Origin: a virus
Length of the DNA: 64,000 nt
Reading direction: 5' to 3' (one strand)
IMG/VR virus record: IMGVR_UViG_3300028581_000028
Span: 1 to 64,000 of that record
In this document: positions 448 to 51,967 of the stretch, in pieces
How the letters are laid out: every line of letters starts with the position of its first letter
Position numbering within the stretch: position 1 is the stretch's first letter
Made by a program: the position numbers and the translations under genes
The notes under the pieces: generated by a model
The model's database searches: none
What the model was told of the DNA's origin: nothing
What the model saw: the letters and a program-made list of their open reading frames with translations, nothing else

Positions 448-609
448 TTATTTTGAATGCTTGGTTATATGCGAAAATAGGGCAGTTATACCCAATACGG
501 ATACAATAAGAGCAAGAGTTTGAATACGGTTGTGCCATAACATTTCCGTGCTTTTCTTTTCAAGACTTACGAGTCTTTCTTGTGTACTAATATCGGAATT
601 ATTTTCCAC
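448..609 (-). CDS. 53-aa membrane protein (coiled coil plus one TM helix), not in ORF track
   Basis: Hand translation from GTG: MENNSDISTQERLVSLEKKSTEMLWHNRIQTLALIVSVLGITALFSHITKHSK; fills the gap between neighbouring genes. Confidence 0.55.
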   Translation of the reverse strand: MENNSDISTQERLVSLEKKSTEMLWHNRIQTLALIVSVLGITALFSHITKHSK

Positions 610-1168
610 CTTTTTTCATTTTTTTATAAACTACAAAACCGATGATTCCGAGTACTACTACAACACCGACTGCTATGCCGATTTTTGCTCCAGTACTCAT
701 TCCCTTTTCAGATCCTCCGCTTGGAGTGTCTTTTGCGAGTGCGTTTGCCAAAGCAATATCTCCAGCAACACCTTTCTCACTTGCCTTTGCAGACATCTGC
801 TGGGCTTTTGCCTGATCACGTTTCGAGAGATTTTTCTGCAGTTGACCTTGTGCTTTTAAGCCTCTGGCTTCTGCTTTTGACTTAGCTCTTAAGTCTCTTC
901 TTGCGTTTCGTCTTGCCCTACTTTTTGCATCCAGCCCAAAGAGGTTATAATAATCCTCTTCGTTTCCCTCGCCATCGAGGTGCGAAAACACCCTTTGACC
1001 AATAAAGGCTCTGGTTGTTTTGTCTTTGAAGCCACCCTCTGCACAAAAGAATTCATTTAAGTCTCTGCCATTATAACTCTGTAATCCCTTTGTATATACA
1101 TAGTCAAGACGTGTCCCATCAATGCCTTGAGTAAACTCGTCCTTTAGGTTTGAATTGCTATAATTCAT
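599..1168 (-). CDS. Membrane-anchored virion protein with Arg-rich segment
   Basis: C-terminal KGMSTGAKIGIAVGVVVVLGIIGFVVYKK anchor; acidic N-half followed by RARRNARR. Confidence 0.75.
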   Translation of the reverse strand: MNYSNSNLKDEFTQGIDGTRLDYVYTKGLQSYNGRDLNEFFCAEGGFKDKTTRAFIGQRVFSHLDGEGNEEDYYNLFGLDAKSRARRNARRDLRAKSKAEARGLKAQGQLQKNLSKRDQAKAQQMSAKASEKGVAGDIALANALAKDTPSGGSEKGMSTGAKIGIAVGVVVVLGIIGFVVYKKMKKGGK

Positions 1169-1174
1169 AATCGG

Positions 1175-1792
1175 TTATTTTTTCTTAATTAATGTTTTGT
1201 AAATTATAAATAAAGCAACCATCACCGCTACCGTAATACCGATTGTGATCGCTGGATGTTCTTTGATAGTATCAACTCCTTTTTGTACTCCCTCGTTAAT
1301 AGCTTCCGTTACTTGCGTAAAAGTAGACTTGGCATAATCTGCCTCTTCTTTCCGCCTTCCCCGTAATAGTTCTTGTTGTTTTGGAGGTAATTTTTTGTTA
1401 TCGTTATAAGTACTGGTTACGATTGCGTCTGCCAGTTTATTTACATCCCCAGTTTTTGCAGATTCCCTAATCGCTGGTTTTGTAATACTACCGTAATTAT
1501 ACGCAATAGATAATAGGGCAGTACGAGCTGGTTCTGGAAGCTTGTTATAAGCATCACCTATTTGTCTTTTTACTACTGGCTCGAAATCTTGTTTAATTCT
1601 TCTGGCAATGTCTTTCTCTGCCATTTCTCGTGTTGTAACATCTGTTTTTACAACTTTTCGAAACGTACCATCTGGCAGAGTTATAGTATCGCTACCGTAT
1701 CCGAGTCTGTATGCGTTTACGTCCCAATAAGGCTTACTGCTATAACCCTCGAATTTTTTTATAAAATTTGCTACGTTATCGTAAAATGCCAT
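1175..1792 (-). CDS. Phage-type lysozyme (GH24-like) with C-terminal TM anchor
   Basis: IKKFEG...YWD...LGYG, ALLSIAYNYG and RRKEE motifs; hydrophobic C-terminus plus KKK. Confidence 0.8.
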   Translation of the reverse strand: MAFYDNVANFIKKFEGYSSKPYWDVNAYRLGYGSDTITLPDGTFRKVVKTDVTTREMAEKDIARRIKQDFEPVVKRQIGDAYNKLPEPARTALLSIAYNYGSITKPAIRESAKTGDVNKLADAIVTSTYNDNKKLPPKQQELLRGRRKEEADYAKSTFTQVTEAINEGVQKGVDTIKEHPAITIGITVAVMVALFIIYKTLIKKK

Positions 1793-1801
1793 AATATTTT
1801 T

Positions 1802-2404
1802 TTATTCTATATCATTTATAAACAATGCTATTTTCTCTCCACCTTGTTTTATTAATGAATTTGGAGGACTCCCAGCCCGTAAGCCTTCCTTTGTCCTCGA
1901 TTCAATAGCCACTTGCACAAGTTGATTGGGATCAGTTATTCCTTTTGCAACTGCAGATGAGAAGTCGGAAGCAAATTTTTGAAACCACCCCGATCCGTTC
2001 CACGTTGCATAAATAAAATTAAACAACAACCGCTTGTCGCTGTTTACAATATCTCTCGCATTGGGAGATAAATAACGCTTTGCTAAAGCCTCATATTCTG
2101 GCAACATTATATTGCCAACATAGACCTTTAACTGTTTTGCTAAAGCACCTCCTTTGTAATTCCATTTCCAGAGTGTCTTTGCATTAGCGTCATCGATTGC
2201 CTTCCAAAATAAAACTCCAGATGGGGTTAAGTTGATCCGCCCCCCAGCTTTGCGATCTATTCCGAACATAGTTTCGCCACTATTAGCATAACGCTGGTCT
2301 TTTACACGACCATCTGCTAACATTAAAGGATGATAATAACCGCCCTCAAGTTTATCAATAACTAAAGCGGTTATTCCCTTAAATATGTTTACGTCTACTG
2401 CCAT
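1802..2404 (-). CDS. Glycoside hydrolase family 108-like muramidase
   Basis: EGGY...GETMFGI signature near the N-terminus. Confidence 0.65.
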   Translation of the reverse strand: MAVDVNIFKGITALVIDKLEGGYYHPLMLADGRVKDQRYANSGETMFGIDRKAGGRINLTPSGVLFWKAIDDANAKTLWKWNYKGGALAKQLKVYVGNIMLPEYEALAKRYLSPNARDIVNSDKRLLFNFIYATWNGSGWFQKFASDFSSAVAKGITDPNQLVQVAIESRTKEGLRAGSPPNSLIKQGGEKIALFINDIE

Positions 2405-2484
2405 CGTTAATCTTGCTAACTAATTGATACACTCCGAGAATTACCGCAATGTGATTGCGTAATAAGAAGTACTTAAAGCGGACA

Positions 2485-3195
2485 CTACGGAGCAATGTTG
2501 GTGTAATTCTTACTTTGTAAATAAACGTCTTTCAACGCTTTGCCATAAGAATTAGTCTCATTATTCCAAGTATAGTCCGTTACGATTGCCTTTGCCTTAA
2601 TCCAGCCTTGTTTACTGGTATTTCCAACGAATTTAGCAACTGGTTTAGCCCCATCCATAACGATCTTTCCGATAACGAATTTTTTATCTACTGCTGGGTA
2701 GTTAAAAGCGTTATCTGTAGACTGCTTTGGATAAAGGTTATCGCCATTCTTAAAGTTATTGCTTTTCGCTGGGGTTGTTAGCTTAAGGTATTCAGCACCG
2801 TAAACCGCCCAAGCCTTTTGTGTAGACGTTCCGAAGTTACCGTAACCGCTTCCTTTTAAAAGGAAATTGCCATTAGTTAATGCTGGATTTTTAGCACCAA
2901 CCCATTTTAAACCTTTTTTATCAAGCCAGTCTTGGAACTTCATTACTTCGGAAGGACTCGAAGGCATACCATCACCTTGTGTCACTACTGGTAGGGGTGT
3001 ATTTACGATAACCTCTGGTGTAGTATTCACATTTGTCTGGTTTTGGTCTACCTTCGGCAGTTCCGATGTTAATAAGGCATCGGCTTTTTCTTTTTCCTTT
3101 GCCTTTTTACGTTTCCACAAAAGATAACCGCCTATTGCTCCCAGTACCAAAAAACTTGCGATAACGAGTATCGTCTTTTTTGTGTTTGGTTGCAT
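2485..3195 (-). CDS. N-terminally membrane-anchored protein with peptidoglycan-binding-like domain
   Basis: TM at about aa 8-27 followed by a KRKK stretch; VMKFQDWL...GNFGTSTQKAW resembles PG_binding_1. Confidence 0.6.
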   Translation of the reverse strand: MQPNTKKTILVIASFLVLGAIGGYLLWKRKKAKEKEKADALLTSELPKVDQNQTNVNTTPEVIVNTPLPVVTQGDGMPSSPSEVMKFQDWLDKKGLKWVGAKNPALTNGNFLLKGSGYGNFGTSTQKAWAVYGAEYLKLTTPAKSNNFKNGDNLYPKQSTDNAFNYPAVDKKFVIGKIVMDGAKPVAKFVGNTSKQGWIKAKAIVTDYTWNNETNSYGKALKDVYLQSKNYTNIAP

Positions 3196-3200
3196 AGTTC

Positions 3201-3428
3201 TTATTTCTTAGTAACGGTTTCTTTGGTTGGTTGGCTTTTTTTAGCTTTGATACTTGCAGAAATGATTGCACCAGCAACTGCTCCAACAAGAGTACCAACA
3301 ACTAATTTCCAAGTTTTGTCAGCTTTGATAACTTTTTTAGTTACAAGGAATCCAGCAACTGCTCCAATTCCAGTACCAATAAGGTTGTGTTGACCTTTTG
3401 CGATGATTTCTCTTACTTTGTTTGCCAT
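3201..3428 (-). CDS. Small two-TM glycine-zipper membrane protein
   Basis: GTGIGAVAG and GTLVGAVAGA helices with a basic tail. Confidence 0.7.
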   Translation of the reverse strand: MANKVREIIAKGQHNLIGTGIGAVAGFLVTKKVIKADKTWKLVVGTLVGAVAGAIISASIKAKKSQPTKETVTKK

Positions 3429-3472
3429 TTTCGTTTGATTTTAATTAAACACTATTTATTTATTACAGAATT

Positions 3473-3979
3473 TTAAAATTTATAAGGTATTTTCCTTGCG
3501 GTCAATATTTGATTTATTTTTTGCACATACACTGCATCCATATCATCAACAATTGCGGATGACATAGTACCCTTAAAATCTGGAGCTGGATTCCCTTTGC
3601 CAGAAGCTACTGTACGGACACCATAACTTTGCATAACTCCCAAGAGATCAAGATAAGTTGGGATAGACATAAACGCTTGTAAGATTGCTAAGTTATCCGT
3701 TCCCCAGCCATCCATTGCAGTATGAATTTTATTCGCCAACCCCAGCCATTGAGCTTTTGTTAATTTGGGCTTCTCGCCTTTTGACATTAACTGTACCAAC
3801 TCGTTATTAATTTGTTGGTCTTGTTGTCTTTCGCCTTGTTCTTTAACTAAATCGGTACTCTTTTTATAAATTTTATATGCGACTATTAGTACAGCACCAA
3901 CAACTACAACACCAATTAAACCCTTCGCCCAAGTTGGCATCCCAGTAAAACTCTCCTTTGCGAAATTTTGCTTTGCCAT
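3473..3979 (-). CDS. Membrane-anchored protein with annexin-like repeat
   Basis: N-terminal TM; ANKIHTAMDGWGTDNLAILQAF matches the annexin endonexin motif A-M-x-G-x-G-T-D. Confidence 0.6.
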   Translation of the reverse strand: MAKQNFAKESFTGMPTWAKGLIGVVVVGAVLIVAYKIYKKSTDLVKEQGERQQDQQINNELVQLMSKGEKPKLTKAQWLGLANKIHTAMDGWGTDNLAILQAFMSIPTYLDLLGVMQSYGVRTVASGKGNPAPDFKGTMSSAIVDDMDAVYVQKINQILTARKIPYKF

Positions 3980-3991
3980 ATTTTTATTTTT

Positions 3992-5938
3992 TTATTGCCA
4001 TACGTTTTTATCTGTAGCCTCGTTATTTACCCCAGTAGCACCCTTCCAAATAGTCATATTATCAGAAGTGTTCAAGTAAGCGGTTAATAGGGTTGAACCC
4101 ACATTAGCAACCGAGTGATTGGCGATAATATCACCAGCCAATGCCACTGCTACGGGAGTAAATACAAACTGAAGCGTATTTCCGACTACTGTATTATCTG
4201 GCATAAATATGTGGGGAATTACTCCACCCAATCCTACGATATTGTTTATGTTTTTACCCGTTGAATTAAGGCATTTAAACTCCCCAATAAAAGATGTATC
4301 GGCTGGGAGTGTTAAAACACCCAAAGCATAAATTAAAGGATCGTTTAAATCTAAAGTATATTGCCAGTTGCTATAACTATGCCTTACGCATCTTTTTGTA
4401 TATACTACCGATACGATTTTAATATATACAAAAAAGTCTGATATATCACAATTCTCAACCTCTCCAGTTAGCGTTATACTATCCGACTCAAAGATAGCTT
4501 TGTGTTTTAATCGGTTCATTATAAAATTTCCGTTAACCGATACGTTTATCTGTACCTTAGACTGCCCGATTAAATTATTATAAGTAACATCTCCGCCACC
4601 AGCAATAGAACCTACCGTTAAAATAGAAGACTCTACAATCGTATTGTTTTCTACAAATCTTCCGTTTGAGGTTGTTGTATTTATTAAAAGTGAACTTCCA
4701 TTCCCAGCCACGTAATTGAATCTTACGCTACCCCTTGTATCGTTTAATCGTATTGCACCACCAGAATTTATTAAATTAAACGATACAATTCCAGCTCCTA
4801 TCGCCCCACCGCTATATGTATCGTCTTCAAGTAGTCCATCGTGTATAATATTAGAATCAAAATTCACGACACTATTTCTGCAATTCATAATACAACTACC
4901 AACCAGCTTATTTTTTGTAACAACATCTCTACCCCATTGAAAAAATAAAAGGGAGTTGAGTAATCCACGAATAAATAAGTCGACCTCATTCAACCGTTTA
5001 TCTGCCCGATAAATTATTGTATTGGTAAATACGTTGTATTTAACGAAATCTGTTTCGAGAATATATCCAGTAGTATCGCTTTTTGCCAATACAGACCAGT
5101 TTACTAAGTCGGTATGTGGGGCTGTTCCCCAAGCACCAGTTAAATTAACGTAATGGAGGTTATTCCAGATAACCACATTTCCGATTACTACAGGCTGAAC
5201 ATTAGCCGACCATAAGCCCAGTTGACCAGCAAAGCCAACAACTCCCGTATAAACTCCTACTCCTTGAAAATCGGGGTTCAAAAACAATCCAGCACCTTGT
5301 ATAGATACGGAGTTGTTTGTTACACCTTGAATAACGACACCCAAGTCTGCAAATGAGTTATCGGTTATTTTATAAAATTGTCCTTTAACTACAGTAAAGC
5401 CAGATATCAATGCCAACATTTGTGCATTTGTTAGCGTTACAATAGAAGCACCATCAATAGTTATTACGGTTGCATTATTTATCGCATCATCCGAAGCAAC
5501 AACTCCAGCACCAACAAAATTTAATCTTAACCGTTGCGGTAATGCCAAGCCCTCGTCTTGTATAACGTGTCCAGCTACACCGCCACCGCCACCAGCAGTT
5601 ACACTATACTGCCCAATATAATTAGTATCGCTTGTAACACGCACCACAAAACTTGATGCGTTTGCGGTCATTACATAACTCGATACCCCGTTAATTAAAA
5701 AGCCAAGAGGGGCATCAATAGTGATGTTGTTTATAGAAGCATTATTGCTTTTGTCTACAATATATAATTTCCATTGGGTACTCCATTTTCCTTGAGGTAT
5801 TCCAAGCAATTGAATACCAACCGCACCAGCAGAAGTATCACATAAAAGAACACTATCGTCTTGGCGAACAAGGTTAACCAGCCCGATAATCGTTCTTATG
5901 TTATTCCCGTATTTTTGTTCAAATAAGTTGGTAGCCAT
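3992..5938 (-). CDS. Spike / receptor-binding-like protein with probable beta-helix
   Basis: 648 aa, rich in N/V/G/I; periodic Asn-ladder repeats in the C-half; fibre-type LNFVGAGV motif. Confidence 0.55.
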   Translation of the reverse strand: MATNLFEQKYGNNIRTIIGLVNLVRQDDSVLLCDTSAGAVGIQLLGIPQGKWSTQWKLYIVDKSNNASINNITIDAPLGFLINGVSSYVMTANASSFVVRVTSDTNYIGQYSVTAGGGGGVAGHVIQDEGLALPQRLRLNFVGAGVVASDDAINNATVITIDGASIVTLTNAQMLALISGFTVVKGQFYKITDNSFADLGVVIQGVTNNSVSIQGAGLFLNPDFQGVGVYTGVVGFAGQLGLWSANVQPVVIGNVVIWNNLHYVNLTGAWGTAPHTDLVNWSVLAKSDTTGYILETDFVKYNVFTNTIIYRADKRLNEVDLFIRGLLNSLLFFQWGRDVVTKNKLVGSCIMNCRNSVVNFDSNIIHDGLLEDDTYSGGAIGAGIVSFNLINSGGAIRLNDTRGSVRFNYVAGNGSSLLINTTTSNGRFVENNTIVESSILTVGSIAGGGDVTYNNLIGQSKVQINVSVNGNFIMNRLKHKAIFESDSITLTGEVENCDISDFFVYIKIVSVVYTKRCVRHSYSNWQYTLDLNDPLIYALGVLTLPADTSFIGEFKCLNSTGKNINNIVGLGGVIPHIFMPDNTVVGNTLQFVFTPVAVALAGDIIANHSVANVGSTLLTAYLNTSDNMTIWKGATGVNNEATDKNVWQ

Positions 5939-5940
5939 TC

Positions 5941-7146
5941 TTATAATAATTTTTTGCTTGTCCTTGCTTCGTTAAAAAACAACTTTCTTAAATCTCTCTG
6001 CTCGTAGAAAAACGCAAATGTCACCGTATTCCCAGCGAGTACCTTATATTCGAGTACATCCATCCCATTAGGAATAAATGGTCGGTTTAGGTTACAGTCG
6101 ATATTAAAAAATACAATATCGTTTGCAACCTGCATATTATCCACTTGTAATTGCAACTGGATTGGATCGATTTTTTGTTTACCCTCAGAGTTTTTATTTT
6201 TAAAAATCAAGGGTTGGTTTATTTGTTGTTGAAGCGTTGCTCCAGCAAAAGTAAACTTAGCATTCGGGATGTGCATTGGGTTACCGAGTATGTTAAACAT
6301 AACATCAGAATAACTCACCAACCCCCCAGCTACTTGTATTTTGTTGTTTAAATTTCCAGATGTAGAGTATAAATAATCAAGAGGCATAGATGGGTTAAAT
6401 AACTCAACTACAAAGTCTAATGCCGAGTTGTTATTCATTGTAAAGATTAACTCTTTTAGCTTTTTACCTTTGTAGTACCCAACATTTTTTACGTTCAAAG
6501 AACATTTATCGCCCTTTAATATCATATCGTCCAGTCCTTGAACGATCACGGTTTGATCTCTTGGTACAAGAACCCTCTGAAGAGTTTTTGAGTTTTTGCC
6601 CTTGCCAACTAATTTTGCACGTCCCCCAACCAATCGTCCACTATCATCCACCATCCCAACTCCAACCTTTTTTGTCAAAGGCTTTCTTGTTTTTGGGCGA
6701 ACTTGCATTGGTCTGCTTAAGGCTGGGTTTTTTTTGCGAAGTATCGGCTGGTTACCAACGGGTACTCCTCTGCGGACTGTTTTTATGGCTACATTGCCAG
6801 TTTTCCTTCGAACCTTGCCCTTCTTTGCAGTCCGATTAACACGTCTTAGCGAAGTTTTAAAGTCGCCTTTAAACTGGCTAAAATCGATATCTAAAATATA
6901 ATCATCAGGGTTTTCGTCCTCGCTACCATCGTAAACCTCTTCGTTATCATCATCGGCTACTTGTTGGTCGCCCCCTGCATCGTAATATTCTTCATCGCCC
7001 TCTGCCTCAAAATACCTTTCTCCGCCTTGTTCTATGACAAAAGCATCATCCCCACTCTCTACTTCGCTTTGAGAGGCGATGCCATCATTAAGAAAATCAT
7101 CAAAAATGTCTTCTTGGTAAGGGTTATATGTATTTGTATCTGCCAT
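5941..7146 (-). CDS. Capsid-like protein 2 (acidic and basic N-terminal extension plus beta-rich domain paralogous to 13304..14056)
   Basis: C-terminal ~160 aa align by eye with 13304..14056. Confidence 0.55.
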   Translation of the reverse strand: MADTNTYNPYQEDIFDDFLNDGIASQSEVESGDDAFVIEQGGERYFEAEGDEEYYDAGGDQQVADDDNEEVYDGSEDENPDDYILDIDFSQFKGDFKTSLRRVNRTAKKGKVRRKTGNVAIKTVRRGVPVGNQPILRKKNPALSRPMQVRPKTRKPLTKKVGVGMVDDSGRLVGGRAKLVGKGKNSKTLQRVLVPRDQTVIVQGLDDMILKGDKCSLNVKNVGYYKGKKLKELIFTMNNNSALDFVVELFNPSMPLDYLYSTSGNLNNKIQVAGGLVSYSDVMFNILGNPMHIPNAKFTFAGATLQQQINQPLIFKNKNSEGKQKIDPIQLQLQVDNMQVANDIVFFNIDCNLNRPFIPNGMDVLEYKVLAGNTVTFAFFYEQRDLRKLFFNEARTSKKLL

Positions 7147-7149
7147 ATT

Positions 7150-7935
7150 TTACATTAATTGAGCATATTCTTGATTTTCAAACCGTTTAATGTAGTCATT
7201 AATTTTTCGCATCCTTGCTATATTTTCGTCTGTTTGTGCCTTTAAAAACACATTTGCAAAAACACATATAGCATCTATTTTTGAAAAACCGCTTCCTAAA
7301 TATAGATATAAAGCATTAATGTCTGCACCCGTCTCGTGTCCTATTTGTAAGCCGATCTTCGGGTTTTTCCATTTGTGACAATACTCGTGAAGTACGATGA
7401 TAAACCTCATCGGGATTGTGTAGGGTACAAAACGATAAGCACTCGCTTCGATAAGACCAGTAGAATGCCCAATTCTTGCTGGGGTGCTTAACGGAGCTTT
7501 AGACATAAAGTCTCTTATGACGGGGAAGTATTTTATATTAAATCTCGCATCGGGACTCTGGTAAATAGTGCCATTTTGTTTTGGCTTTTCAAATCCACAT
7601 TTTTGCGAAAAGCTAATATCTAACTGCATAAACTCTTTTGTACCCTCGTCCAGCCAGATATTAAATTTCCTTAATGGTACTTCTTCGACTTTCATTTCGA
7701 AGCTTTCATCTCTCGTATCAACCGCATTAAAACAACCGATAAGTATTCTTTTTGGAGTGACTGGGAGTGAAAAATAAATCATCCTCGATCCATCAACAAC
7801 TATCTCCCTATCCGCATATTTACTATTATTACGAGCAACCTCTTGTACCCAGACACGAAACTTTTTCTTGCCACTACAGTTAATAGTGACATTCAACCTC
7901 ATCTCTCTGTTATTGCTTTCGTGTATTGCAAACAT
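7150..7935 (-). CDS. Zincin-like metalloprotease, candidate virion maturation protease
   Basis: IVLHEYCH (HExxH) followed by ETGAD (ExxAD third-ligand motif). Confidence 0.7.
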   Translation of the reverse strand: MFAIHESNNREMRLNVTINCSGKKKFRVWVQEVARNNSKYADREIVVDGSRMIYFSLPVTPKRILIGCFNAVDTRDESFEMKVEEVPLRKFNIWLDEGTKEFMQLDISFSQKCGFEKPKQNGTIYQSPDARFNIKYFPVIRDFMSKAPLSTPARIGHSTGLIEASAYRFVPYTIPMRFIIVLHEYCHKWKNPKIGLQIGHETGADINALYLYLGSGFSKIDAICVFANVFLKAQTDENIARMRKINDYIKRFENQEYAQLM

Positions 7936-7957
7936 TACTGTTTATTTTTTTTTGTTA

Positions 7958-8584
7958 TTATTTTGCTACTGCTGGGGCTGGTGTGCTTGGCTTTTTAGTT
8001 GCAAAGTAGATAATTGCACCTACTACTACAACGATCCCAACTCCTATTGCGATTTTAACTCCAGTACTCATTCCTTTTTTAGCAGTTGGATCTTCTGCTG
8101 GGGCATTTGTTGATACAAGGTCTGCCTCAGATGATTGTCCTCCACCACCGCCTCCGCCCATATTTAAGCCGAGTAATTCGCCCAGTTTATCAATTAAACC
8201 AGATTCCTTTGCTTTACCCCATACACCTTTGGCTTTATCCCAGTAATATCCTTTAGCTTTTTTCTCCTTAATTTCTTTTTCAGAAGGGGTGCTGGAACTT
8301 GTTCCGCTTTCAAATGCTGGTTTACCAGTTATATTGCCACCAGAGGAGGCTACTCCGCCAAGAGCAGTCCAAAATTTCTCAAAGTCTGCTCCGTAAGTTT
8401 TATAAGCCTTTTTAGATTTTGCTCCGTATTTACCATCGACCTTAAGGTTTGCACCTTTAGAGTTTGCAAAAATATGAAATTGTTTTACTTGTGCAGAATT
8501 CTCGCCATCAATATTTAAGTAGAAATCTTGGTAGTTCTCTCTTTTCTTATTGATAATAACTGGATATGCGGTTGTTATTTTCAT
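7958..8584 (-). CDS. Membrane-anchored protein with peptidoglycan-binding-like domain
   Basis: LKVDGKYGAKSKKA motif; KKGMSTGVKIAIG TM anchor. Confidence 0.7.
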   Translation of the reverse strand: MKITTAYPVIINKKRENYQDFYLNIDGENSAQVKQFHIFANSKGANLKVDGKYGAKSKKAYKTYGADFEKFWTALGGVASSGGNITGKPAFESGTSSSTPSEKEIKEKKAKGYYWDKAKGVWGKAKESGLIDKLGELLGLNMGGGGGGGQSSEADLVSTNAPAEDPTAKKGMSTGVKIAIGVGIVVVVGAIIYFATKKPSTPAPAVAK

Positions 8585-8612
8585 TGTATTTTTGTTTTTT
8601 TAGATTTCATTT

Positions 8613-9485
8613 TTATAAACCACCAACTGAATATTTAAAGCCAGTTTTATTTATATTTCCGCCCATTTTAAACTGTACCTCATCTCTTGAGTTTTCGACC
8701 ACCTCGCCAGTATTTACATAATTAAAATCAACATCGGCTTTTTTCCCAATTTTAGCAATGCCTCGTTTTTTTGCTACTGCAAGGTTTGGTGCGTAAACGT
8801 AAGTATATAGCTGGTCTGGTTTGTTTTTTCCAAAGACATTAAAAATCGTTTGTCCTACATAAGATTTGGGTACAAGACTTTGAGTTGTTTTATCTATAAT
8901 AAGCTCCTCGCCCTTTAATATTTCCAGTACAGCGTTTATGTCGTTGCGATCAACTCTGTTTTCGTGAATAAACTTCATTATACTGTATGCCTTCCGAAAT
9001 TTATCAGCCTTGTGATATGCCTCAACCTCAACTGTAAACCTTGTAAAAGAATAACTATTATCAACTCCAGTATAATATTGAATTTCGCCAAGTTGTTCGA
9101 AATAATTAGCATTCGGTCTCTCCTCTAAAAAGAACCGTATGGTTGCGTAAGGGTTATTGCTTCCAGATGGGCTAAATAGTAAATAAAAGAGTTTTTTACC
9201 GCCTAAAACACCGCCTCTGACATATTTATCGTAATGTCCCTCAACGTAAGTGTCAATAGTCCAGCCCTTCTCCTCAAATTTATTAATTAAAGCAGTTTCC
9301 ATATCGGTATCGTTCTCGAAAGATGTTTCTAACTGGCTTAACGATAACTCGGTGTAAGCATTCCACAAGTCTTTAATATTAGCACTCTTATCGTCAAAAA
9401 CAAACCCAAACATATCGACCATTTTGCTAACAATTGCAAAAAACTCGTTATCGGTCAATGTTAATATTTTGGTTTTTACTCCCAT
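8613..9485 (-). CDS. Hypothetical protein with C-terminal FKMGG...YSVGGL tail
   Basis: 290-aa ORF in operon context. Confidence 0.7.
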   Translation of the reverse strand: MGVKTKILTLTDNEFFAIVSKMVDMFGFVFDDKSANIKDLWNAYTELSLSQLETSFENDTDMETALINKFEEKGWTIDTYVEGHYDKYVRGGVLGGKKLFYLLFSPSGSNNPYATIRFFLEERPNANYFEQLGEIQYYTGVDNSYSFTRFTVEVEAYHKADKFRKAYSIMKFIHENRVDRNDINAVLEILKGEELIIDKTTQSLVPKSYVGQTIFNVFGKNKPDQLYTYVYAPNLAVAKKRGIAKIGKKADVDFNYVNTGEVVENSRDEVQFKMGGNINKTGFKYSVGGL

Positions 9486-9486
9486 T

Positions 9487-9978
9487 TTATTTTTTACTAA
9501 ATCTGAATACTAAATAAGCACCCAGTAAAGCCCCAGCAACTGCTCCAATGATTTTATTTTTTTGGGTAGGCAATGCGATCCAACCTTTCTTTTCGGCAAA
9601 GTACACGCCAGCGAAGCCAACTATTCCGCCAACGATAACTGCGTCCAAGTATTTTACATTGTCTTTGGATGTTTTAGACGATTTTGTTTTGTCTACAGTA
9701 ACCTTAACTTTACTCTCAGACTGACTATCACCCTCCGCATTGCTGATACCAGTACCAGCGTTAATGTCCTTTGTAATGATTTGTTTTACGCAAGATAAAG
9801 GCACTACAACCACCCCTTTGTATAACACAAAGGCTGGTTTACCTTTTGAATCTTTAAGCTCACCGCTAATAATTTCTCCTTTTTTAAAGACCTTTGCTTT
9901 AATTTGCGTTGGTCTATGAGGCATCCCAGTAGATACAACATAGGGAGATTTAAAGTCTTTTGTTGCTACAAAGTCCAT
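9487..9978 (-). CDS. Membrane protein with two C-terminal TM helices
   Basis: Two glycine-rich hydrophobic helices; ISNAEG motif. Confidence 0.7.
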   Translation of the reverse strand: MDFVATKDFKSPYVVSTGMPHRPTQIKAKVFKKGEIISGELKDSKGKPAFVLYKGVVVVPLSCVKQIITKDINAGTGISNAEGDSQSESKVKVTVDKTKSSKTSKDNVKYLDAVIVGGIVGFAGVYFAEKKGWIALPTQKNKIIGAVAGALLGAYLVFRFSKK

Positions 9979-10085
9979 TATTTCTTAATTTTTACTTTTT
10001 TTATTTCTTTTTTCGACTTCTTGTATTGGCTATAAACCAATATTCCGATGCCGATAATCACAAGTACTCCAAGAACCTTTTTCAT
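9978..10085 (-). CDS. 35-aa TM plus poly-Lys micro-protein, not in ORF track
   Basis: Hand translation MKKVLGVLVIIGIGILVYSQYKKSKKEIKKVKIKK; stop overlaps the next start (TAATG). Confidence 0.7.
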   Translation of the reverse strand: MKKVLGVLVIIGIGILVYSQYKKSKKEIKKVKIKK

Positions 10086-10087
10086 AG

Positions 10088-10813
10088 CTACTTTTTCTTT
10101 TTAATAGCATAAACAACACCAACAATAAGTGCTATTGCGACCAGACTCCCTACAACTATTAACACGGTTTTGGTTGTTTTGGCTTTACGTTCATTGGCTT
10201 TAGCAATCTCTTCTTGTTTGGCTTTTTTCTGTTCCATTATTTGCTGGATCATCTGCCTCTTTGCCTCTTGTTGTTTTGCCAGAGTTTCGCTACTCCCAAA
10301 CTTTTTCATTTTTTGGGTGTCCATTATTTTGTTGGCGATACCACCACCAACTTCTAATAAACTGCCAATCAGTCCTCCACCAGCATAATAAAACTCGTCA
10401 TCTGATTCGCCATCGGCATCTAAGTAGTCCTCGTTCACAGTATCACTCGTATCATCGTATTGATTTGCATCAAAATATTCGTACATTACCTTATAGGTAG
10501 CCTTCATCCCCGAATCGTTAATTGCGGATTCTCCATCAGCTCCAACGACTTGATTTTTATGGCTGATAAGAAAAGATGCCCCCAGCAATAAGTTACGATT
10601 GCTGGGTGCATTATCTATAAAGGCATTAACAAGCTGGATATCGGATGCGTTATCGGGTACTGGGATATTTGCATTTCTCAATACTTCGATAAAGTCCGAT
10701 TTATCTTTAATAAGATAAATCGCCAATTCACGCATAATAACCCTATTGGCTTTCTGCGTATCTCGGCTTTTTATATATTTGGCGAGTTCGCCAAAAAACT
10801 TGCTATTATCCAC
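10088..10813 (-). CDS. Membrane-anchored coiled-coil virion protein
   Basis: C-terminal TM plus KKKK; GADG and YLDADG motifs. Confidence 0.75.
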   Translation of the reverse strand: MDNSKFFGELAKYIKSRDTQKANRVIMRELAIYLIKDKSDFIEVLRNANIPVPDNASDIQLVNAFIDNAPSNRNLLLGASFLISHKNQVVGADGESAINDSGMKATYKVMYEYFDANQYDDTSDTVNEDYLDADGESDDEFYYAGGGLIGSLLEVGGGIANKIMDTQKMKKFGSSETLAKQQEAKRQMIQQIMEQKKAKQEEIAKANERKAKTTKTVLIVVGSLVAIALIVGVVYAIKKKK

Positions 10814-10817
10814 CTTA

Positions 10818-12068
10818 TTATTTTTTCTTTAGTACATACTTATTAATCAACACAATTGCTACTACACCAATTGCTACACCAATGGCTATTTTAACACCAG
10901 TCGACATACCCTTCTTTTTGCCTTCGGCATTCGAGAAGTTTAAGTCAAATTTGCGACTTGCTGGTGCATCGTAATCGTCTTTATCATCGATCCCTATATA
11001 TCCAGTATCTCCGTTTACACCATTAGATTCCTCTGCTGGTATAACGATTGAGTCTTGTGCAATATCTGGGTTTAATTCTGCATCAACTGGAGTTTCTGAT
11101 CCGCCTTCGGAACGCTTTTGTGCCAATTTTCTTGCTGGTGCGTTTGCTAAAGCTACCTTCATACGATCACGTTTAGCCAAGCGTTTAGCTTTTCTAATTT
11201 CACGTCTGCTGTTTCTTTCTGCTTTGCCACGACCTCTTGCACTTGAATAACCCTGCAGTTTTTCTTCCAACATCTTAACACGGGCATTGCGAGTTGCAAT
11301 CTGCTTTCTAAGGCTTTCTTTCATTGGTTCGCTTTTAGCGTTTGCCAATTTAAGAGTAAGGCGTTGGATATATTCTTTTTGCCATTCGATCTTTTTAGTT
11401 ATTTCTTTTACCGTAGGATGTATTTTTTGTTTCACGCCATCCACGTTCAAGAAATAATCTTCAGCACCGCCAAGTTCAGATGTGAAGGAGTCTTCAGCAC
11501 CATTAAATTCGTTGGTCGGATCAAATACTGCCCCGCCATCAAATCCAGATTCCTCTTCGTATCCGCCTTCATCAGCGTAACCTTCTTCTCCGCCTTTTTC
11601 TTCATAGCCTTCTTCTTCAGCGTAGCCTTCTTCTCCGCCTTGATCCTCAACATATCCGCCACCCTGATCTTCAGCATAACCACCGCCCTGATCTTCAGCA
11701 TAACCGCCCTGATCTTCAGCATAACCGCCCTGTTCTTCCATTAACGGTTCTTCTTCTTCCCCCATAGCTTTACGAGCTAATTTGCGAGTTTTTCTTGTAT
11801 CTTTTTGGGTTTGTTTTGCTTCGAGACGATTTGCTCTCATCCCTTGTCGTGTGGCTTGTTTATCGGCTCTACGAGAAAGCCGATTCGATGCCCTTGTCCT
11901 TTTTCTTTCATCACGTCTTTGGATTCGTTCCATTCTGCGTTTTTGCCTTCTGGCACGTCCACGTCCCCTCGCTTGTGAGAACTCACCAAATGCTTCCTCG
12001 AAAGTAGCAACTTGGATCGAGTTATCGCCAGTATTACGGGGAGATAGTGTAATAATTGTTGGCTTCAT
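10818..12068 (-). CDS. Membrane-anchored protein with alternating Arg-rich and acidic blocks
   Basis: RGRGRARRQKRR block, acidic EDQGGY repeats, KKGMSTGVKIAIG anchor. Confidence 0.8.
   Translation of the reverse strand: MKPTIITLSPRNTGDNSIQVATFEEAFGEFSQARGRGRARRQKRRMERIQRRDERKRTRASNRLSRRADKQATRQGMRANRLEAKQTQKDTRKTRKLARKAMGEEEEPLMEEQGGYAEDQGGYAEDQGGGYAEDQGGGYVEDQGGEEGYAEEEGYEEKGGEEGYADEGGYEEESGFDGGAVFDPTNEFNGAEDSFTSELGGAEDYFLNVDGVKQKIHPTVKEITKKIEWQKEYIQRLTLKLANAKSEPMKESLRKQIATRNARVKMLEEKLQGYSSARGRGKAERNSRREIRKAKRLAKRDRMKVALANAPARKLAQKRSEGGSETPVDAELNPDIAQDSIVIPAEESNGVNGDTGYIGIDDKDDYDAPASRKFDLNFSNAEGKKKGMSTGVKIAIGVAIGVVAIVLINKYVLKKK
11635..11740 (-). repeat. Coding tandem repeat of 21-24 nt (E-D-Q-G-G-(G)-Y-A, about 5 copies)
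   Basis: ccgccctgatcttcagcataa units repeated. Confidence 0.85.
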
Positions 12069-12089
12069 ATTTTAATATTTAAGGTTAAA

Positions 12090-12563
12090 TTATTTGCTTG
12101 GAGCTATTTTAACACTTTGGTGTTTGTCTACATAAGTGCCAAACAAAAATCCTGCAACTGCAACAACTGATGTCACCATTGCGGTCTTGCCACCTTTGTA
12201 TTTTTTGTATTTAGAAAATCCGAAACCGATACCAGCTCCGATTAATCCATAAATTACAGCATTTTTAGTAAATATTCTCTTGTGCATTGGGATATTTACT
12301 ACCGTTGCAGACTGCTGGGCATCTGCTCCTAAAGTTACTTCAGTTACTTCCATTGGTTTGATTTTTTTAAAATATATTAATTGTTTATCCTTCGTTGCAA
12401 ATAGTTTGTAAGTAAATTTTAGACCTCTTCTTTTGCCCTCTACCAGTTTTATATCGCCATCTAATTGAGTACCCTTCTTAATGATTTTATCACTCTCGGT
12501 AAAATTATGATGTTCTAAATTTGGTATAAGAACTTCAGCGTCCTCGATCAATTCTACTTTCAT
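12090..12563 (-). CDS. Membrane protein with two C-terminal TM helices
   Basis: Same architecture as 9487..9978; LGADA motif. Confidence 0.7.
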   Translation of the reverse strand: MKVELIEDAEVLIPNLEHHNFTESDKIIKKGTQLDGDIKLVEGKRRGLKFTYKLFATKDKQLIYFKKIKPMEVTEVTLGADAQQSATVVNIPMHKRIFTKNAVIYGLIGAGIGFGFSKYKKYKGGKTAMVTSVVAVAGFLFGTYVDKHQSVKIAPSK

Positions 12564-12569
12564 ATCTTG

Positions 12570-13220
12570 TTATCTGTTTGTTTTTAAATACAACACCATC
12601 CCAAATATTGCGACTACGCTAACAATTCCAAGTACTACAACTGTTTCCGTTGCAATTCTTTGTACTGGGATACTTTGTTCGCTACCTCCCTCTGCATTAG
12701 AGTATGTAGCATTTTTTGAACATCCGCCACAATTTGAACATCCGCCACTACAGTTTGACATTGTTTGTTTTCTGTAAGGGCAATTTGGACGTTTTTGGTA
12801 ATTTGGGTTACCATCCATATTTATATATCTTTTACAATAAGGGCAATTGGGATTTCCGCAAGGGGGATGTCCTTCGAATTCTGCCCAGCCTTCGTGTAAA
12901 ACAGTTTCCTTTAAAACCTTGTTTTGCTCATCCGTTTTTATTGGTTCTGGATTAGACTGTAGCGGTTCAACCTTAACTTTAGGATTGTTGTATTTTAATA
13001 TAAATTCCTTATGCGGATGAATCTCCGCAAATTCTTTTTCCAAGTCGATCTTGGCTGGGGACGAAGCATAAAGTTTGGCTAACTTAATCTCCAAATCCTT
13101 AACATCCGTTGCGTTAAGCCCCGTATGTTTTTTTAATAAACCCTTTGCTTTATCGGTTGAGGCATTTGCCAGTACCGAGAGAAGCGTTGAATATTCAGAC
13201 TTTTTCCTTTTATCATTCAT
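12570..13220 (-). CDS. Membrane-anchored Cys-rich protein
   Basis: CGNPNCPYC, NCPY and CSGGCSNCGGC; YSNAEG; C-terminal TM. Confidence 0.7.
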   Translation of the reverse strand: MNDKRKKSEYSTLLSVLANASTDKAKGLLKKHTGLNATDVKDLEIKLAKLYASSPAKIDLEKEFAEIHPHKEFILKYNNPKVKVEPLQSNPEPIKTDEQNKVLKETVLHEGWAEFEGHPPCGNPNCPYCKRYINMDGNPNYQKRPNCPYRKQTMSNCSGGCSNCGGCSKNATYSNAEGGSEQSIPVQRIATETVVVLGIVSVVAIFGMVLYLKTNR

Positions 13221-13245
13221 TACGTTTATCCTTTAAAAGTTTTTT

Positions 13246-13278
13246 AAAAAAGGGATAAGGCATAACCCTATCCCTTTT
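13246..13278 (-). terminator. Rho-independent terminator after the putative major capsid gene
   Basis: Minus-strand AAAAGGGATAGGG-TTATG-CCTTATCCCTTTTTT hairpin ending in a U-tract. Confidence 0.75.
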
Positions 13279-13303
13279 ATTTATAGGAAAATCCAGTAAT
13301 GAA

Positions 13304-14056
13304 TTAGCTCCTCGAGATGCCTTTTACATCCTGAGTTGTCTGGATAATAACTGGAGCTACGTTTTTACCGCTTAAGCGTGGGGCTCTTGCGGAGTTAATC
13401 GATGATCCTCCGTTCAGTTTAGCTTTTCCGCTAATAACTGAGATTGGGAACATAGAGATTGTAAGTAATGCACCAGCTAAGAGGTTAAAGGTTAAATAAG
13501 TGTTTCCATCAACTGTAACAGGCTTGGTAACATCGATGATGTCTGGCTGTTGTTGATAAGCGTCACGCATAATACTTAAATTCAACGGGGTTGAATAAGT
13601 TTTACCGTTTGCATCAACGTGGTTGATATTAACAGTTACTTGTAACTGGGCAGGGGTTGTACATTGAAATCTCCATTTGCCAATTTTGAAGAATTTGTTA
13701 TTTGACTGGGCGAGTAAACGACCATAAGTACCGCCTTGTAAGTTGGTCAATACGATACCAACGGGGTTTCCGTACTGGGGTCCAGCTCCAAACCAATCGT
13801 TGTAGCCAAATAATACTGCGATTAAAGCACCTACGGTTGTGTTTTCGTAAGAAACAACATAAGGATCGGATACGACTTGAGGTCTTCCACTTGCAAATGA
13901 CATATCGTCACCATCGATTAAAGACATATCGTCTCCATCAAAGTTGTCCATATCATCAAAATAAGCGAAATCACCCTCGTTATCGTATGAATCGATACCA
14001 GACATTCTTTCTGTACCGTTAATTGCTAATAGCAATTCTTTTTCTTTTGCTTTCAT
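13304..14056 (-). CDS. Putative major capsid protein (single jelly-roll-like), with acidic N-terminal extension
   Basis: Beta-strand-like ~150-aa core; near the front of the structural operon, with a structured leader and its own terminator; paralog at 5941..7146. Confidence 0.5.
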   Translation of the reverse strand: MKAKEKELLLAINGTERMSGIDSYDNEGDFAYFDDMDNFDGDDMSLIDGDDMSFASGRPQVVSDPYVVSYENTTVGALIAVLFGYNDWFGAGPQYGNPVGIVLTNLQGGTYGRLLAQSNNKFFKIGKWRFQCTTPAQLQVTVNINHVDANGKTYSTPLNLSIMRDAYQQQPDIIDVTKPVTVDGNTYLTFNLLAGALLTISMFPISVISGKAKLNGGSSINSARAPRLSGKNVAPVIIQTTQDVKGISRS

Positions 14057-14371: not shown

Positions 14372-14401
14372 CAAACTTAAACCAGTTATGCCCGAAACAA
14401 A
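14372..14401 (-). promoter_or_regulatory. Bacteroidota sigma-A-type promoter for the structural operon
   Basis: Minus strand TTTG-18 nt-TAAGTTTG, matching the TTTG/TAnnTTTG consensus. Confidence 0.6.
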
Positions 14402-17503: not shown

Positions 17504-17740
17504 TTACAGATTATTTATAATATTTTTGATACTAAACGGAATTGATATCGGTAAACTAATCCACAATGCAATTATACCGCAAATAAACAAAAAAATATTT
17601 TTATCGGATACTACCCTTGTTGTATCTTCCAGTACTTGCTTCCGATCCGCCCTAAAAAATATAAGAATACTGGCAACTACAAAAGCTACACTCCAAATCT
17701 CGGTACCCAGCAATAATAATATCCAAAAATTCCATTCCAT
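17504..17740 (-). CDS. Two-TM membrane protein next to the packaging ATPase
   Basis: Two hydrophobic helices. Confidence 0.65.
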   Translation of the reverse strand: MEWNFWILLLLGTEIWSVAFVVASILIFFRADRKQVLEDTTRVVSDKNIFLFICGIIALWISLPISIPFSIKNIINNL

Positions 17741-17743
17741 CGG

Positions 17744-18607
17744 CTAAACTTTATTTCCGTAATATTGTTGTGCATATTGTTTTGTCAGACCTTGCATAGC
17801 ATCCTCAATCGGACAACCGTGCATATCTTTGTACTCACGCAAATACTTTTTATTGGTATTTAGATACTGTTTACACGCATCATCAAATTCCTTTCGGGTA
17901 AATTTGCCCTCGATTTTATTTGCAAAATTGTGTATGTAAACAAAAAACCGCTTGTCGCCACCGAAGTATCTGTTATTAACGATTAACTGGGCTATTTTAA
18001 ATAATGTAGGGTTACTTACTTTGCCCTTAATATCGTTTACGTTATCTGCTTGGTAATGCATCCTTACCCAGCGACTATTTTGCCAAATTCTCGGTTCTAC
18101 TGGTCTTAAAGACTGGTACGAAATCAAAACATCAACTGCACGATGCCTTAAGTTTACAATACCACCAACGATCTCTTCCATGAAGGTAACTGATAGGATG
18201 TAGGTGTTTATATCCTCCAGTACAAGCATACCGTTTTTGTAAATCTTTAACAAGTACTCTACCGCCTCTTTCTTTTCTTTAATACCCAAGTTTTTAGCAT
18301 CAATCCTTCGGCATTCTATAATATCCGAGTGACACCATTTTTCCACATCTGACAAAGCGATCCTTCGTACCTCGAAATTCTCGATATCGTTTTTCGCAAA
18401 TTGTTCTTTTGTGTACTCCCCATTGGTGTCGAAAATTAAACATTTTCTACCCTTTACTTTATTATAAAACTTATCCTTAACGTACTCTCGGATAACGTAC
18501 ATATTAAGATAGGTTTTTCCGACTCCTTGTATCCCCGTACAAGTCATCATACCAGCCTCTCTTGTGCCGACTGGCTTTATTTTATTCATTACTTCTTTCG
18601 ACTGCAT
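17744..18607 (-). CDS. A32/P9-like genome packaging ATPase (FtsK-HerA superfamily)
   Basis: Walker A GIQGVGKT, LIFD, Walker B MLVLED, and LRHRAVDVLISYQ (Arg finger RH plus strand-ending Q) in a 287-aa standalone protein. Confidence 0.75.
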   Translation of the reverse strand: MQSKEVMNKIKPVGTREAGMMTCTGIQGVGKTYLNMYVIREYVKDKFYNKVKGRKCLIFDTNGEYTKEQFAKNDIENFEVRRIALSDVEKWCHSDIIECRRIDAKNLGIKEKKEAVEYLLKIYKNGMLVLEDINTYILSVTFMEEIVGGIVNLRHRAVDVLISYQSLRPVEPRIWQNSRWVRMHYQADNVNDIKGKVSNPTLFKIAQLIVNNRYFGGDKRFFVYIHNFANKIEGKFTRKEFDDACKQYLNTNKKYLREYKDMHGCPIEDAMQGLTKQYAQQYYGNKV

Positions 18608-33068: not shown

Positions 33069-33069
33069 A

Positions 33070-33393
33070 TTATACTATACTTGCCAATATTTGTAAATCG
33101 TTAAAAAACCCAACGTAGCACCCTTGCTTTGATTCAAAGTCTGGGGATAATTCACCAGTATTTACATCAAAAGCATAAAGTCCGTATCGTTTATCCGATA
33201 TTGAATAATTATGATAAGTCAATACTTGTGATACAACAAAAACATAATTTTTTATCTTATCGTTCACCCCTAATTCGTAATTACTTTCGACCTTATACGT
33301 TCCCTTCTCTGGAAGAGGTTTCAAGGATTCTTGTAAGTTTTTATCAAGGATATAATCGATAATTTTGTCCCTTATTTCTTTTTTAATTTCCAT
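33070..33393 (-). CDS. Hypothetical protein
   Basis: ORF in operon. Confidence 0.6.
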   Translation of the reverse strand: MEIKKEIRDKIIDYILDKNLQESLKPLPEKGTYKVESNYELGVNDKIKNYVFVVSQVLTYHNYSISDKRYGLYAFDVNTGELSPDFESKQGCYVGFFNDLQILASIV

Positions 33394-33399
33394 ATTTTT

Positions 33400-34656: not shown

Positions 34657-34687
34657 TTTTTCGAGTATTTATTTTGTAAACCGTAGC

Positions 34688-35992: not shown

Positions 35993-36002
35993 ATTACTGT
36001 TT

Positions 36003-40607: not shown

Positions 40608-40608
40608 T

Positions 40609-51448: not shown

Positions 51449-51967
51449 TTATTGTTTTGTTTTTAATTCTGCGTTTTCTCGCCTTAAGCTCTCGTTTTCC
51501 AGCGTTAAACTCTTGATTCGGGAGTTTGACTTGACCGCCACATTCTCTTCACGGTTATTGCGTTGTTTTAGGTTGTTGATCTCCTTTTCGAGTTCCCCGA
51601 TCCGTTGCTTTAATTCCTCTGGGGAGTCGTGATGGGCAGATGCCTTGCTTGTAAGATGCCAAAACCCACATTTGCACAAGTAAGCTCGTACTGGGATAAC
51701 TTTCTTTTTAGATGTTTTTTTGATCTTTTCTAAGCTATAAAGGGCATCTTGTTCGCATCTGAAGTGTACTTTTTTACAAGTACTTGGTTGGTTATCTTTT
51801 ATAATATCCATCCGCCCATCCGCCCAATGCTTTACGATTTGCCCATCTTTGTTCATATAGACCATCGGAAGCCCTCGCCCCCAAGTGTCTTTAATGACTT
51901 CTTGCTGGAGCAGTTCTTTAAACTTAGGGGAGTTTAAATATTTAAGATGTTCCTCGTCTGCACCCAT
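51449..51967 (-). CDS. Zn-finger plus coiled-coil protein
   Basis: C..K...RAYLCKCGFWHLTS. Confidence 0.6.
   Translation of the reverse strand: MGADEEHLKYLNSPKFKELLQQEVIKDTWGRGLPMVYMNKDGQIVKHWADGRMDIIKDNQPSTCKKVHFRCEQDALYSLEKIKKTSKKKVIPVRAYLCKCGFWHLTSKASAHHDSPEELKQRIGELEKEINNLKQRNNREENVAVKSNSRIKSLTLENESLRRENAELKTKQ

Follow-up and report, generated by a model that had tools for sequence, protein, structure and literature searches.

A paralogous pair of predicted jelly-roll proteins as candidate shell components of a freshwater virus

The first 64,000 nucleotides of the IMG/VR virus record IMGVR_UViG_3300028581_000028, the stretch analysed here and hereafter called the window, encode two proteins, P0001 and P0002, that are true paralogues, the C-terminal domain of the former being homologous to the core of the latter. 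Judged from their sequence profiles, both belong to a large and so far unnamed jelly-roll family. With modest confidence, we regard P0002 as the main coat protein of this virus and P0001 as a minor or vertex component of its shell, a capsid role that we infer for both proteins from gene context and conservation. More tentatively, the two may be the shell proteins of an undescribed, widespread freshwater lineage of tailless, membrane-lined viruses with genomes of about 85–150 kb, in which a series leading from one jelly-roll domain per gene, by way of two to four diverged paralogues, to fused tandem domains would be represented. The two open reading frames (ORFs) are as follows (aa, amino acids).

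5941..7146, minus strand: P0001, the large paralogue of 401 aa; candidate second shell or vertex protein
13304..14056, minus strand: P0002, the small jelly-roll protein of 250 aa; candidate major coat protein

An initial annotation of the window had proposed the relationship from collinear blocks shared between P0002 and the C-terminus of P0001. Direct comparison of the two sequences gives a single BLASTP high-scoring segment pair (P0001 303–380 against P0002 136–203, 26% identity, E 3e-4) and a Smith–Waterman score of 63, which is reached by 1 of 2000 shuffles (mean 31.5, standard deviation 5.3). When family alignments are compared, one for P0001 (A1, 33 sequences) and one for P0002 (A2, 73 diverse sequences), hhalign returns a probability of 96.5% and an E-value of 8.2e-10 over 137 columns, equating P0001 233–383 with P0002 66–206 and pairing exactly the blocks singled out before, so that the pairwise profile alignment proposed in that annotation as a check proves significant. 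A hidden Markov model (HMM) of A2, run over the whole 84-kb contig, retrieves only P0002 (2e-91) and the C-terminus of P0001 (1e-9). As a control, small families were built for each of the 23 ORFs of at least 100 aa in the surrounding gene module, and the 21 families other than those of the two paralogues all remained below 15% probability in hhalign against A1 or A2. Two candidates for a third paralogue, a 258-aa acidic protein encoded upstream of P0002 and a 261-aa protein with an HExxH motif, were rejected at an hhalign probability of at most 0.5%.

The fold prediction is well supported for P0002, which appears to be an eight-stranded β-sandwich of the jelly-roll type. Its AlphaFold2 model, computed on A2, has a mean predicted local distance difference test score (pLDDT) of 85.8, with residues 61–215 at 97–98, and divides the protein into two parts.

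13412..13876, minus strand: jelly-roll core of P0002, residues 61–215; eight main strands, with helices at 111–120 and 135–139; the part aligned to P0001
13877..14056, minus strand: N-terminal extension of P0002, residues 1–60; helix at 3–18, acidic-aromatic repeats and an end MSFASG; low pLDDT

The eight-stranded sandwich that had been assumed from the sequence is thus borne out by a high-confidence monomer model with eight strands and by matches to viral jelly rolls. In a Foldseek search against the PDB, the top matches of P0002 are comovirus small subunits, picornavirus capsid proteins and nucleoplasmin cores, at E-values of only about 1e-3. The best row of the exhaustive VIA search is chain O of PR772 (124 aa, Z 6.5, root-mean-square deviation 3.2, 98 aligned residues), which we take to be the P31 penton protein, PRD1 P31 being 126 aa long. 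Next come nepovirus and comovirus coat proteins in a group at Z 5.4–6.0, a range in which P0002 also matches the second jelly roll of the capsid proteins of FLiP, phiCjT23, EhV-201, Faustovirus and PBCV-1. The phiCjT23 chain in question is presumably one of ten capsid-protein copies, given that the phiCjT23 asymmetric unit holds ten capsid monomers (PMC9719478). Searches of BFVD gave weak, scattered jelly-roll matches only, and the ESM Atlas gave no usable match for P0002. In relatives, the extension that precedes the core keeps its D-M-S-Y-F-D-x-D-D units and ends in [MF]S[YF]A[SG]G immediately ahead of the first strand.

P0001 is built of three parts, the last of which carries the homology to P0002.

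6883..7146, minus strand: acidic, variable N-terminal extension of P0001, residues 1–88; 36% D+E, a single K/R, poorly conserved, pLDDT below 50
6577..6882, minus strand: residues 89–190 of P0001; conserved helix motif DIDFSxFKG-DFKSSL, then a linker rich in K/R whose length varies
5944..6576, minus strand: conserved C-terminal domain of P0001, residues 191–401; predicted jelly roll, homologous to P0002 at 233–383

The C-terminal domain is strongly conserved, with 47 invariant columns in A1, and the homology supports its assignment as a jelly-roll sandwich: the 137 homologous columns span all strands, in keeping with the second single jelly-roll domain assumed by the initial annotation, and the strands and helices of the low-confidence model of P0001 itself fall where hhalign equates them with those of P0002. 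The structural matches of this model are jelly-roll sandwiches at Z 4.5–6.6 in VIA, with a carbohydrate-binding module at the top (Z 6.6) and PR772 chain O again among them (Z 4.6). Charged segments had likewise been described for both proteins, and the compositions agree: residues 1–88 of P0001 and 20–60 of P0002 contain 36% and 32% D+E, respectively, and residues 89–190 of P0001 contain 29% K+R. Within the latter segment, a helix is modelled with low confidence at 96–115; 33 homologues all share D88, F89 and S90, and the length of the linker varies. Relatives of P0001 repeat a (K/R)VIVPxxxKVIVEG unit in this K/R-rich linker. The acidic-aromatic units of P0002 and the D-F-S and linker repeats of P0001 may be processing or docking motifs.

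P0002 has 675 homologues, the best 120 of which are at least 67% identical to it, and a search at the 50% identity level gives 403 clusters; P0001 has 524 homologues. Neither protein has a match in Pfam, PHROGs or the PDB sequences, and Pfam and PHROG searches with the two proteins and 28 neighbouring or large proteins gave no match for the structural module. Megablast and tblastn searches of deposited phage genomes with the region, P0002 and the module ATPase as queries found no match either. Compared by hhalign with P23-77 VP16 and VP17 and with PRD1 P31, the P0002 family gives a probability below 1% (0.1% for P31), and when HMMs of the ATPase and the two jelly-roll families are run against every ORF of PRD1, P23-77 and Salisaeta icosahedral phage 1 (SSIP-1), the best E-value is 0.88.

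Conservation and gene order were compared across 11 related IMG/VR loci on contigs of 19–146 kb. P0002 is 64–72% identical in 10 of these 11 syntenic loci and 53% identical in the eleventh, second only to the ATPase, while most module proteins show 25–50% identity across the same relatives. Each of the 10 relatives whose locus extends to P0001 encodes it, at 40–52% identity. The shared order in the 11 relatives begins with a 397-aa acidic protein, the ATPase, small ORFs, a 40-aa membrane ORF and P0002, and continues with four proteins carrying a C-terminal helix, a three-helix protein, the 261-aa HExxH protein, P0001 and a 648-aa protein. In the window, the ATPase gene is followed 3.7 kb downstream by that of P0002, and a stretch of 6.2 kb with eight genes then separates P0002 from P0001, as it does in 10 of the 10 relatives that cover the region.

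17744..18607, minus strand: P-loop ATPase of 287 aa; candidate genome-packaging ATPase of the HerA/FtsK type and the most conserved gene of the module (66–78% identity)
17504..17740, minus strand: 78-aa protein directly downstream of the ATPase, with two membrane segments in a hydropathy scan
14372..14401, minus strand: Bacteroidota-type promoter-like site TTTG-N18-TAAGTTTG, found by pattern search in the non-coding DNA ahead of the 40-aa ORF and P0002
14209..14331, minus strand: 40-aa single-pass membrane ORF directly upstream of P0002; hydrophobic segment, 50–83% identity at the same position in 9 of 11 relatives
9487..13220, minus strand: run of predicted membrane proteins between the paralogues, of 216, 157, 416 and 241 aa with a C-terminal helix and of 163 aa with three helices
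7150..7935, minus strand: 261-aa HExxH protein directly upstream of P0001; candidate zinc protease, 47–61% identity
3992..5938, minus strand: 648-aa acidic, variable protein directly downstream of P0001, with start and stop abutting; no family match
1175..1792, minus strand: lysozyme with a C-terminal membrane helix (Pfam Phage_lysozyme, 2e-10; hydrophobic segment at residue 178 of 205)

The ATPase probably belongs to the HerA/FtsK class. It matches Pfam DUF87 at 8.9e-5 and 23.1 bits against a cut-off of 23.2, just below the threshold in four of five records, and its neighbours in the Atlas, viral proteins some 270 aa long, contain DUF87 or Zot; the 287-aa protein has no nuclease domain and is the only ATPase in the module. 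The 397-aa protein beside it was considered as a double jelly-roll capsid protein and rejected, as it is mostly acidic and of low complexity, with a helical C-terminal part; together with the profile comparison, this leaves the module with no other candidate shell protein. The 261-aa protein has no Pfam or PHROG match. Its LLHE[YF][SC]H and NExGAD motifs are invariant in 10 relatives, and its conservation ranks behind only the ATPase and P0002; it may act as a zinc protease on the acidic extensions. The 648-aa protein is 32–66% identical in relatives and often only partly alignable, and is a candidate spike or host-recognition protein.

The membrane proteins between the paralogues are syntenic in the relatives and have no family matches. 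The hydropathy scan predicts membrane helices in at least 10 ORFs between 448 and 17740, at the C-terminal end in seven of them. Seven otherwise unrelated proteins on the minus strand of 599–13220, the lysozyme included, end in a single hydrophobic helix, the pattern of a tail anchor. Such a pattern is as expected for proteins set in a virion membrane, and would suit a particle with an internal one.

The family itself is diverse. The A2 model finds one to four copies per record in the relatives, and misses the P0001-like gene in two of five of them at E 0.01. The relative with the largest contig, of 146 kb, has four members: a P0002 orthologue, a P0001-like gene and two extra, adjacent paralogues of 255 and 242 aa, at 2016–2783 and 2795–3523 of the locus analysed, which lie about 1.2 kb downstream of its ATPase. 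The 255-aa copy is without the acidic N-terminal extension. Three of 150 listed family representatives (P0280, P0387 and P0378) are tandem two-domain proteins, with domain E-values down to 2.5e-54. Each of these forms is a singleton cluster on one or two contigs of 4–13 kb, and their halves are only 24–34% identical, which marks them as old fusions and not as assembly errors; scans of viral and metagenome contigs found no locus of the tandem forms. The occurrence of two to four paralogues together with tandem fusions is behaviour typical of jelly-roll shell proteins and supports the assignment of the pair to the shell.

The hallmarks of tailed phages were sought in five records totalling 434 kb, those of this virus and of four relatives, from which Phage_capsid (PF05065), Gp23 (PF07068), PF03237, PF17289 (Terminase_6N/6C) and Phage_portal (PF04860) are absent at E≤1. 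Among 49 large proteins, 30 from this genome and 19 from the 146-kb relative (its other ORFs of at least 300 aa), there is no PHROG match to a capsid, portal or tail protein, and the sole match in the head-and-packaging category is that of the ATPase to phrog_2666 (terminase family), a weak one at 2.8e-5. In contrast, replication and nucleotide-metabolism genes of the same genomes match PHROGs at 1e-40 to 1e-103. Strong replication matches beside absent tailed-phage hallmarks argue against a morphogenesis module of the tailed-phage type.

Taken together with the gene order, these observations lead us to the following view of the particle. The virus would build a tailless, membrane-lined icosahedral shell, tiled by the P0002 sandwich behind its acidic extension, probably in the form of six-domain capsomers. 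P0001 would be a second and less abundant shell component with the same sandwich at its C-terminus, acting either as a vertex protein of the penton type that anchors the variable 648-aa protein or sharing the capsomers with P0002; through its charged arms, it may touch the membrane, the DNA or adjacent subunits. P0002 is preferred as the main coat protein because its conservation is second only to that of the ATPase, its jelly roll is compact, it has a non-coding region of its own upstream, and it is the only such protein of the module besides P0001. The vertex position is suggested for P0001 because it is always flanked by the HExxH protein and by the most variable large protein, an arrangement like the P2–P31–P5 order of PRD1.

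Several points weigh against this assignment. The structural matches lie at Z 5–6.6, and since Z-values below 8 are, according to the guide of the tool, common between unrelated sandwiches, no specific structural family is identified; in the searches with P0002 and P0001, carbohydrate-binding modules, nucleoplasmin, TNF/C1q-type proteins and tail or decoration proteins of phages reach the same scores. The model of P0001 is poor, with a mean pLDDT of 52.8 and values of 60–86 in parts of residues 220–385. The ATPase shares only Walker A similarity with PRD1 P9 and the P23-77 ATPase, its DUF87 assignment stays just short of the threshold, and a profile search gave it no PDB sequence match. Moreover, all records are fragmentary, and HK97-type proteins that have diverged strongly can escape the Pfam and PHROG models; the contig is 61% complete, and the remainder of the genome could include the genes for another capsid type. 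A double jelly-roll protein may also be among the other unannotated ORFs.

How P0002 and P0001 divide the work can also be read otherwise. An arrangement of the sphaerolipovirus type, with P0002 and P0001 as the small and the large major coat protein, similar in amount and together forming six-domain capsomers like VP16/VP17 and VP7/VP4, was the reading of the initial annotation. The paralogy and the single jelly-roll domains of that reading are supported, and the genomic context is that of a tailless, membrane-type virus; no result links the pair to the sphaerolipovirus or P23-77 system in particular (VP16/VP17 below 1%). Two paralogous single jelly-roll proteins, small and large, are indeed kept together in every relative covering the region, in a module that also encodes a HerA/FtsK-like ATPase and numerous membrane proteins; the invariant columns of P0001 testify to a strongly conserved domain, and the two adjacent paralogues downstream of the ATPase in the 146-kb relative recall the order ATPase–VP16–VP17. 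The candidate coat genes of the window, however, do not adjoin each other downstream of the ATPase as they do in P23-77, and their spacing is the same in all relatives covering them. This equal partnership is further weakened because P0001 is the less conserved of the two (40–52% against 64–72%), because almost half of it, some 190 residues, is charged and disordered, and because it neighbours the variable 648-aa protein. The failure of the P0002 HMM to reach the P0001-like gene in two of five relatives also speaks of far divergence, and there is no profile similarity to VP16/VP17. Chains of P23-77, SH1 and HHIV-2 are absent from the listed top 50 of three VIA searches (lowest listed Z 4.2–4.5), which is an absence from those lists and no evidence of a different fold. 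On balance, we consider a joint capsomer of two equal coat proteins unlikely.

A very improbable arrangement, in our estimate, is the one in which P0002 is the penton protein and P0001 a penton-associated one, the true major capsid protein, perhaps a double jelly roll, having escaped recognition or being encoded where the contig has no sequence. Structurally, P0002 is matched best by PR772 chain O, which is by its size probably P31, and the contig is incomplete. In viruses with double jelly-roll capsids, the penton protein has a single jelly roll and is a paralogue of the N-terminal region of a spike protein (PMC9719478). The Z-value of 6.5 is, however, within one unit of many unrelated rows, and no ORF of the conserved module looks like a double jelly roll: the 397-aa protein is of low complexity, the 416-aa protein is membrane-anchored, and those of 648 and 290 aa are poorly or not conserved. 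In double jelly-roll viruses the capsid gene normally lies in one module with the ATPase and penton genes, and P0002 is preceded by a non-coding region of its own, in which a host-type promoter-like site lies, and shows a degree of conservation that suits a protein with many contacts. Improbable as well is a divergent tailed phage or another element, in which the jelly-roll proteins would serve as decoration, cement, fibre tip or carbohydrate-binding module, or outside the virion altogether. Jelly rolls of similar size occur frequently in carbohydrate-binding modules and in the decoration, cement and tail proteins of phages, and the structural matches include the KHP40 cement protein, the HFTV1 turret, tail proteins of Kp7, Pa223, T7 and N4, and carbohydrate-binding modules; the genome is large and incomplete, with phage-like replication genes and polyvalent proteins, and the nearest Atlas clusters of the ATPase are mostly labelled Uroviricota, by automatic labels. 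Against this stand the lack of HK97-type and T4-type capsid, portal and large terminase families in the five records, the single weak head-or-tail PHROG match beside strong replication matches, and the nature of the sole module ATPase, which is HerA/FtsK/Zot-like and without a nuclease domain; besides, it is rare for a lineage to have a receptor-binding or decoration protein as its second most conserved gene product.

The source record, from an uncultured virus, is linear and 84,313 bp long, with a CheckV completeness of 61%, and two gene products identical to its own are also encoded on a contig of 111.6 kb; the virus genome is at least 84 kb and probably at least 112 kb in length. A simple greedy caller places 136 of 148 ORFs on the minus strand, and the G+C content is about 37%. 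The rest of the contig (64314–84313) encodes a DnaB helicase (1e-103), a DNA polymerase exonuclease subunit, a PAPS reductase and several DNA methyltransferases, and an RNase H gene lies at 51967–52746 of the window; these readily recognisable replication genes contrast with a structural module that is wholly unannotatable. Giant multi-domain proteins are encoded on the minus strand at 29481–42477, of 1195 aa (LPD23), 1534 aa (Strawberry-notch-type helicase) and 622 aa (DUF5661 and DUF6496), together with a MoxR-like AAA protein and a DUF7192 protein; the block is reminiscent of the polyvalent proteins that phages and conjugative elements encode. In the 146-kb relative, the plus-strand arm (1–65000) contains three copies of one insertion-sequence-type transposase, a nicotinamide phosphoribosyltransferase and an RNA ligase, and may be either viral or a chimeric join.

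The window stretch is found near-intact in lake-water and freshwater DNA metagenomes: 20 runs from 15 studies carry at least part of it and 10 of them half or more, and no RNA run is among the listed runs containing it. Family homologues occur in hundreds of lake, marine and sediment assemblies. A description of the lineage was not found in the literature searched. Homologues on short contigs have been binned into three Bacteroidota metagenome-assembled genomes (MAGs), one "archaeon" MAG and one Clostridiaceae MAG, and one relative, IMGVR_UViG_GVMAG-S-1045057-15_000001, into a giant-virus MAG. Evidently, such a spread over giant-virus, archaeal, Clostridiaceae and Bacteroidota bins means that the lineage is misplaced by current pipelines. 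The host is probably a member of the Bacteroidota. The promoter-like pattern has eight matches in the window against 4.1 expected, which is weak evidence. A scan for sigma-70 promoters and terminators gave results at chance level and is unsuited to a Bacteroidota host.

To our knowledge, all known bacterial viruses with a jelly-roll shell have small genomes, of about 10–44 kb. Here the family lies beside a HerA/FtsK-like ATPase in genomes of 85–150 kb without detectable tailed-phage genes; if its members are indeed coat proteins, the jelly-roll type of capsid would extend to a new size range and a new host group, in genomes several times larger than those of any described bacterial virus of that build. 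The two profiles can be used as markers to mine a lineage that now goes unrecognised or is labelled as tailed phage or giant-virus bin. Jelly-roll bacterial viruses are central to ideas on the origin of the jelly-roll virus realm, and the paralogue pair, the extra copies and the rare fusions offer a concrete case for the evolution of multi-domain capsomers.

The arrangement proposed here is worth comparing with known systems. P23-77 (VP16/VP17) and SH1 (VP7/VP4), members of the Halopanivirales in the kingdom Helvetiavirae, likewise combine a small and a large single jelly-roll protein with a small P-loop ATPase, small membrane proteins and virion-associated lysozymes. However, the P23-77 genome is 17 kb long with ATPase, VP16 and VP17 close together, whereas the present one exceeds it at no less than 84–112 kb with the genes apart, and P0001 differs from the P23-77 and SH1 proteins in its long, charged and disordered N-terminal part. 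Moreover, the coat proteins of the Helvetiavirae are known virion components, whereas the present two are candidate ones. SSIP-1 resembles the present virus in being tailless and membrane-containing, with a Bacteroidota-related host, unclassified structural proteins and a genome (43.8 kb) unusually large for its type; its ORFs give no HMM match to the present families (best E 0.88), and the genome considered here is at least twice as large. At the PRD1/PR772 vertex, a small free jelly-roll protein is accompanied by a larger protein with a related base domain, beside a receptor-binding protein (P2–P31–P5), much as P0002, P0001 and the 648-aa protein might be. The related domain is N-terminal in PRD1 P5 and C-terminal in P0001, and P0002 is twice the size of the 126-aa P31, to which its hhalign probability is 0.1%. 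In PRD1 and PR772, the spike and penton proteins form a mixed penton base (PMC9719478). The Bamfordvirae (FLiP, phiCjT23, PM2, PBCV-1 and Faustovirus) differ in that the window proteins are single-domain and no sequence relationship to them was found; beyond P0001 and P0002, the A2 model finds no further member of the jelly-roll family in the incomplete contig. Nevertheless, several of their capsid proteins have a second jelly roll on which the core of P0002 can be superposed (Z 5.4–5.6), and the rare tandem two-domain members of the family are the kind of fusion proposed to have given rise to double jelly-roll proteins. If the pair are indeed the shell proteins of such a lineage, it would preserve a living series along the proposed route from single to double jelly-roll capsids.

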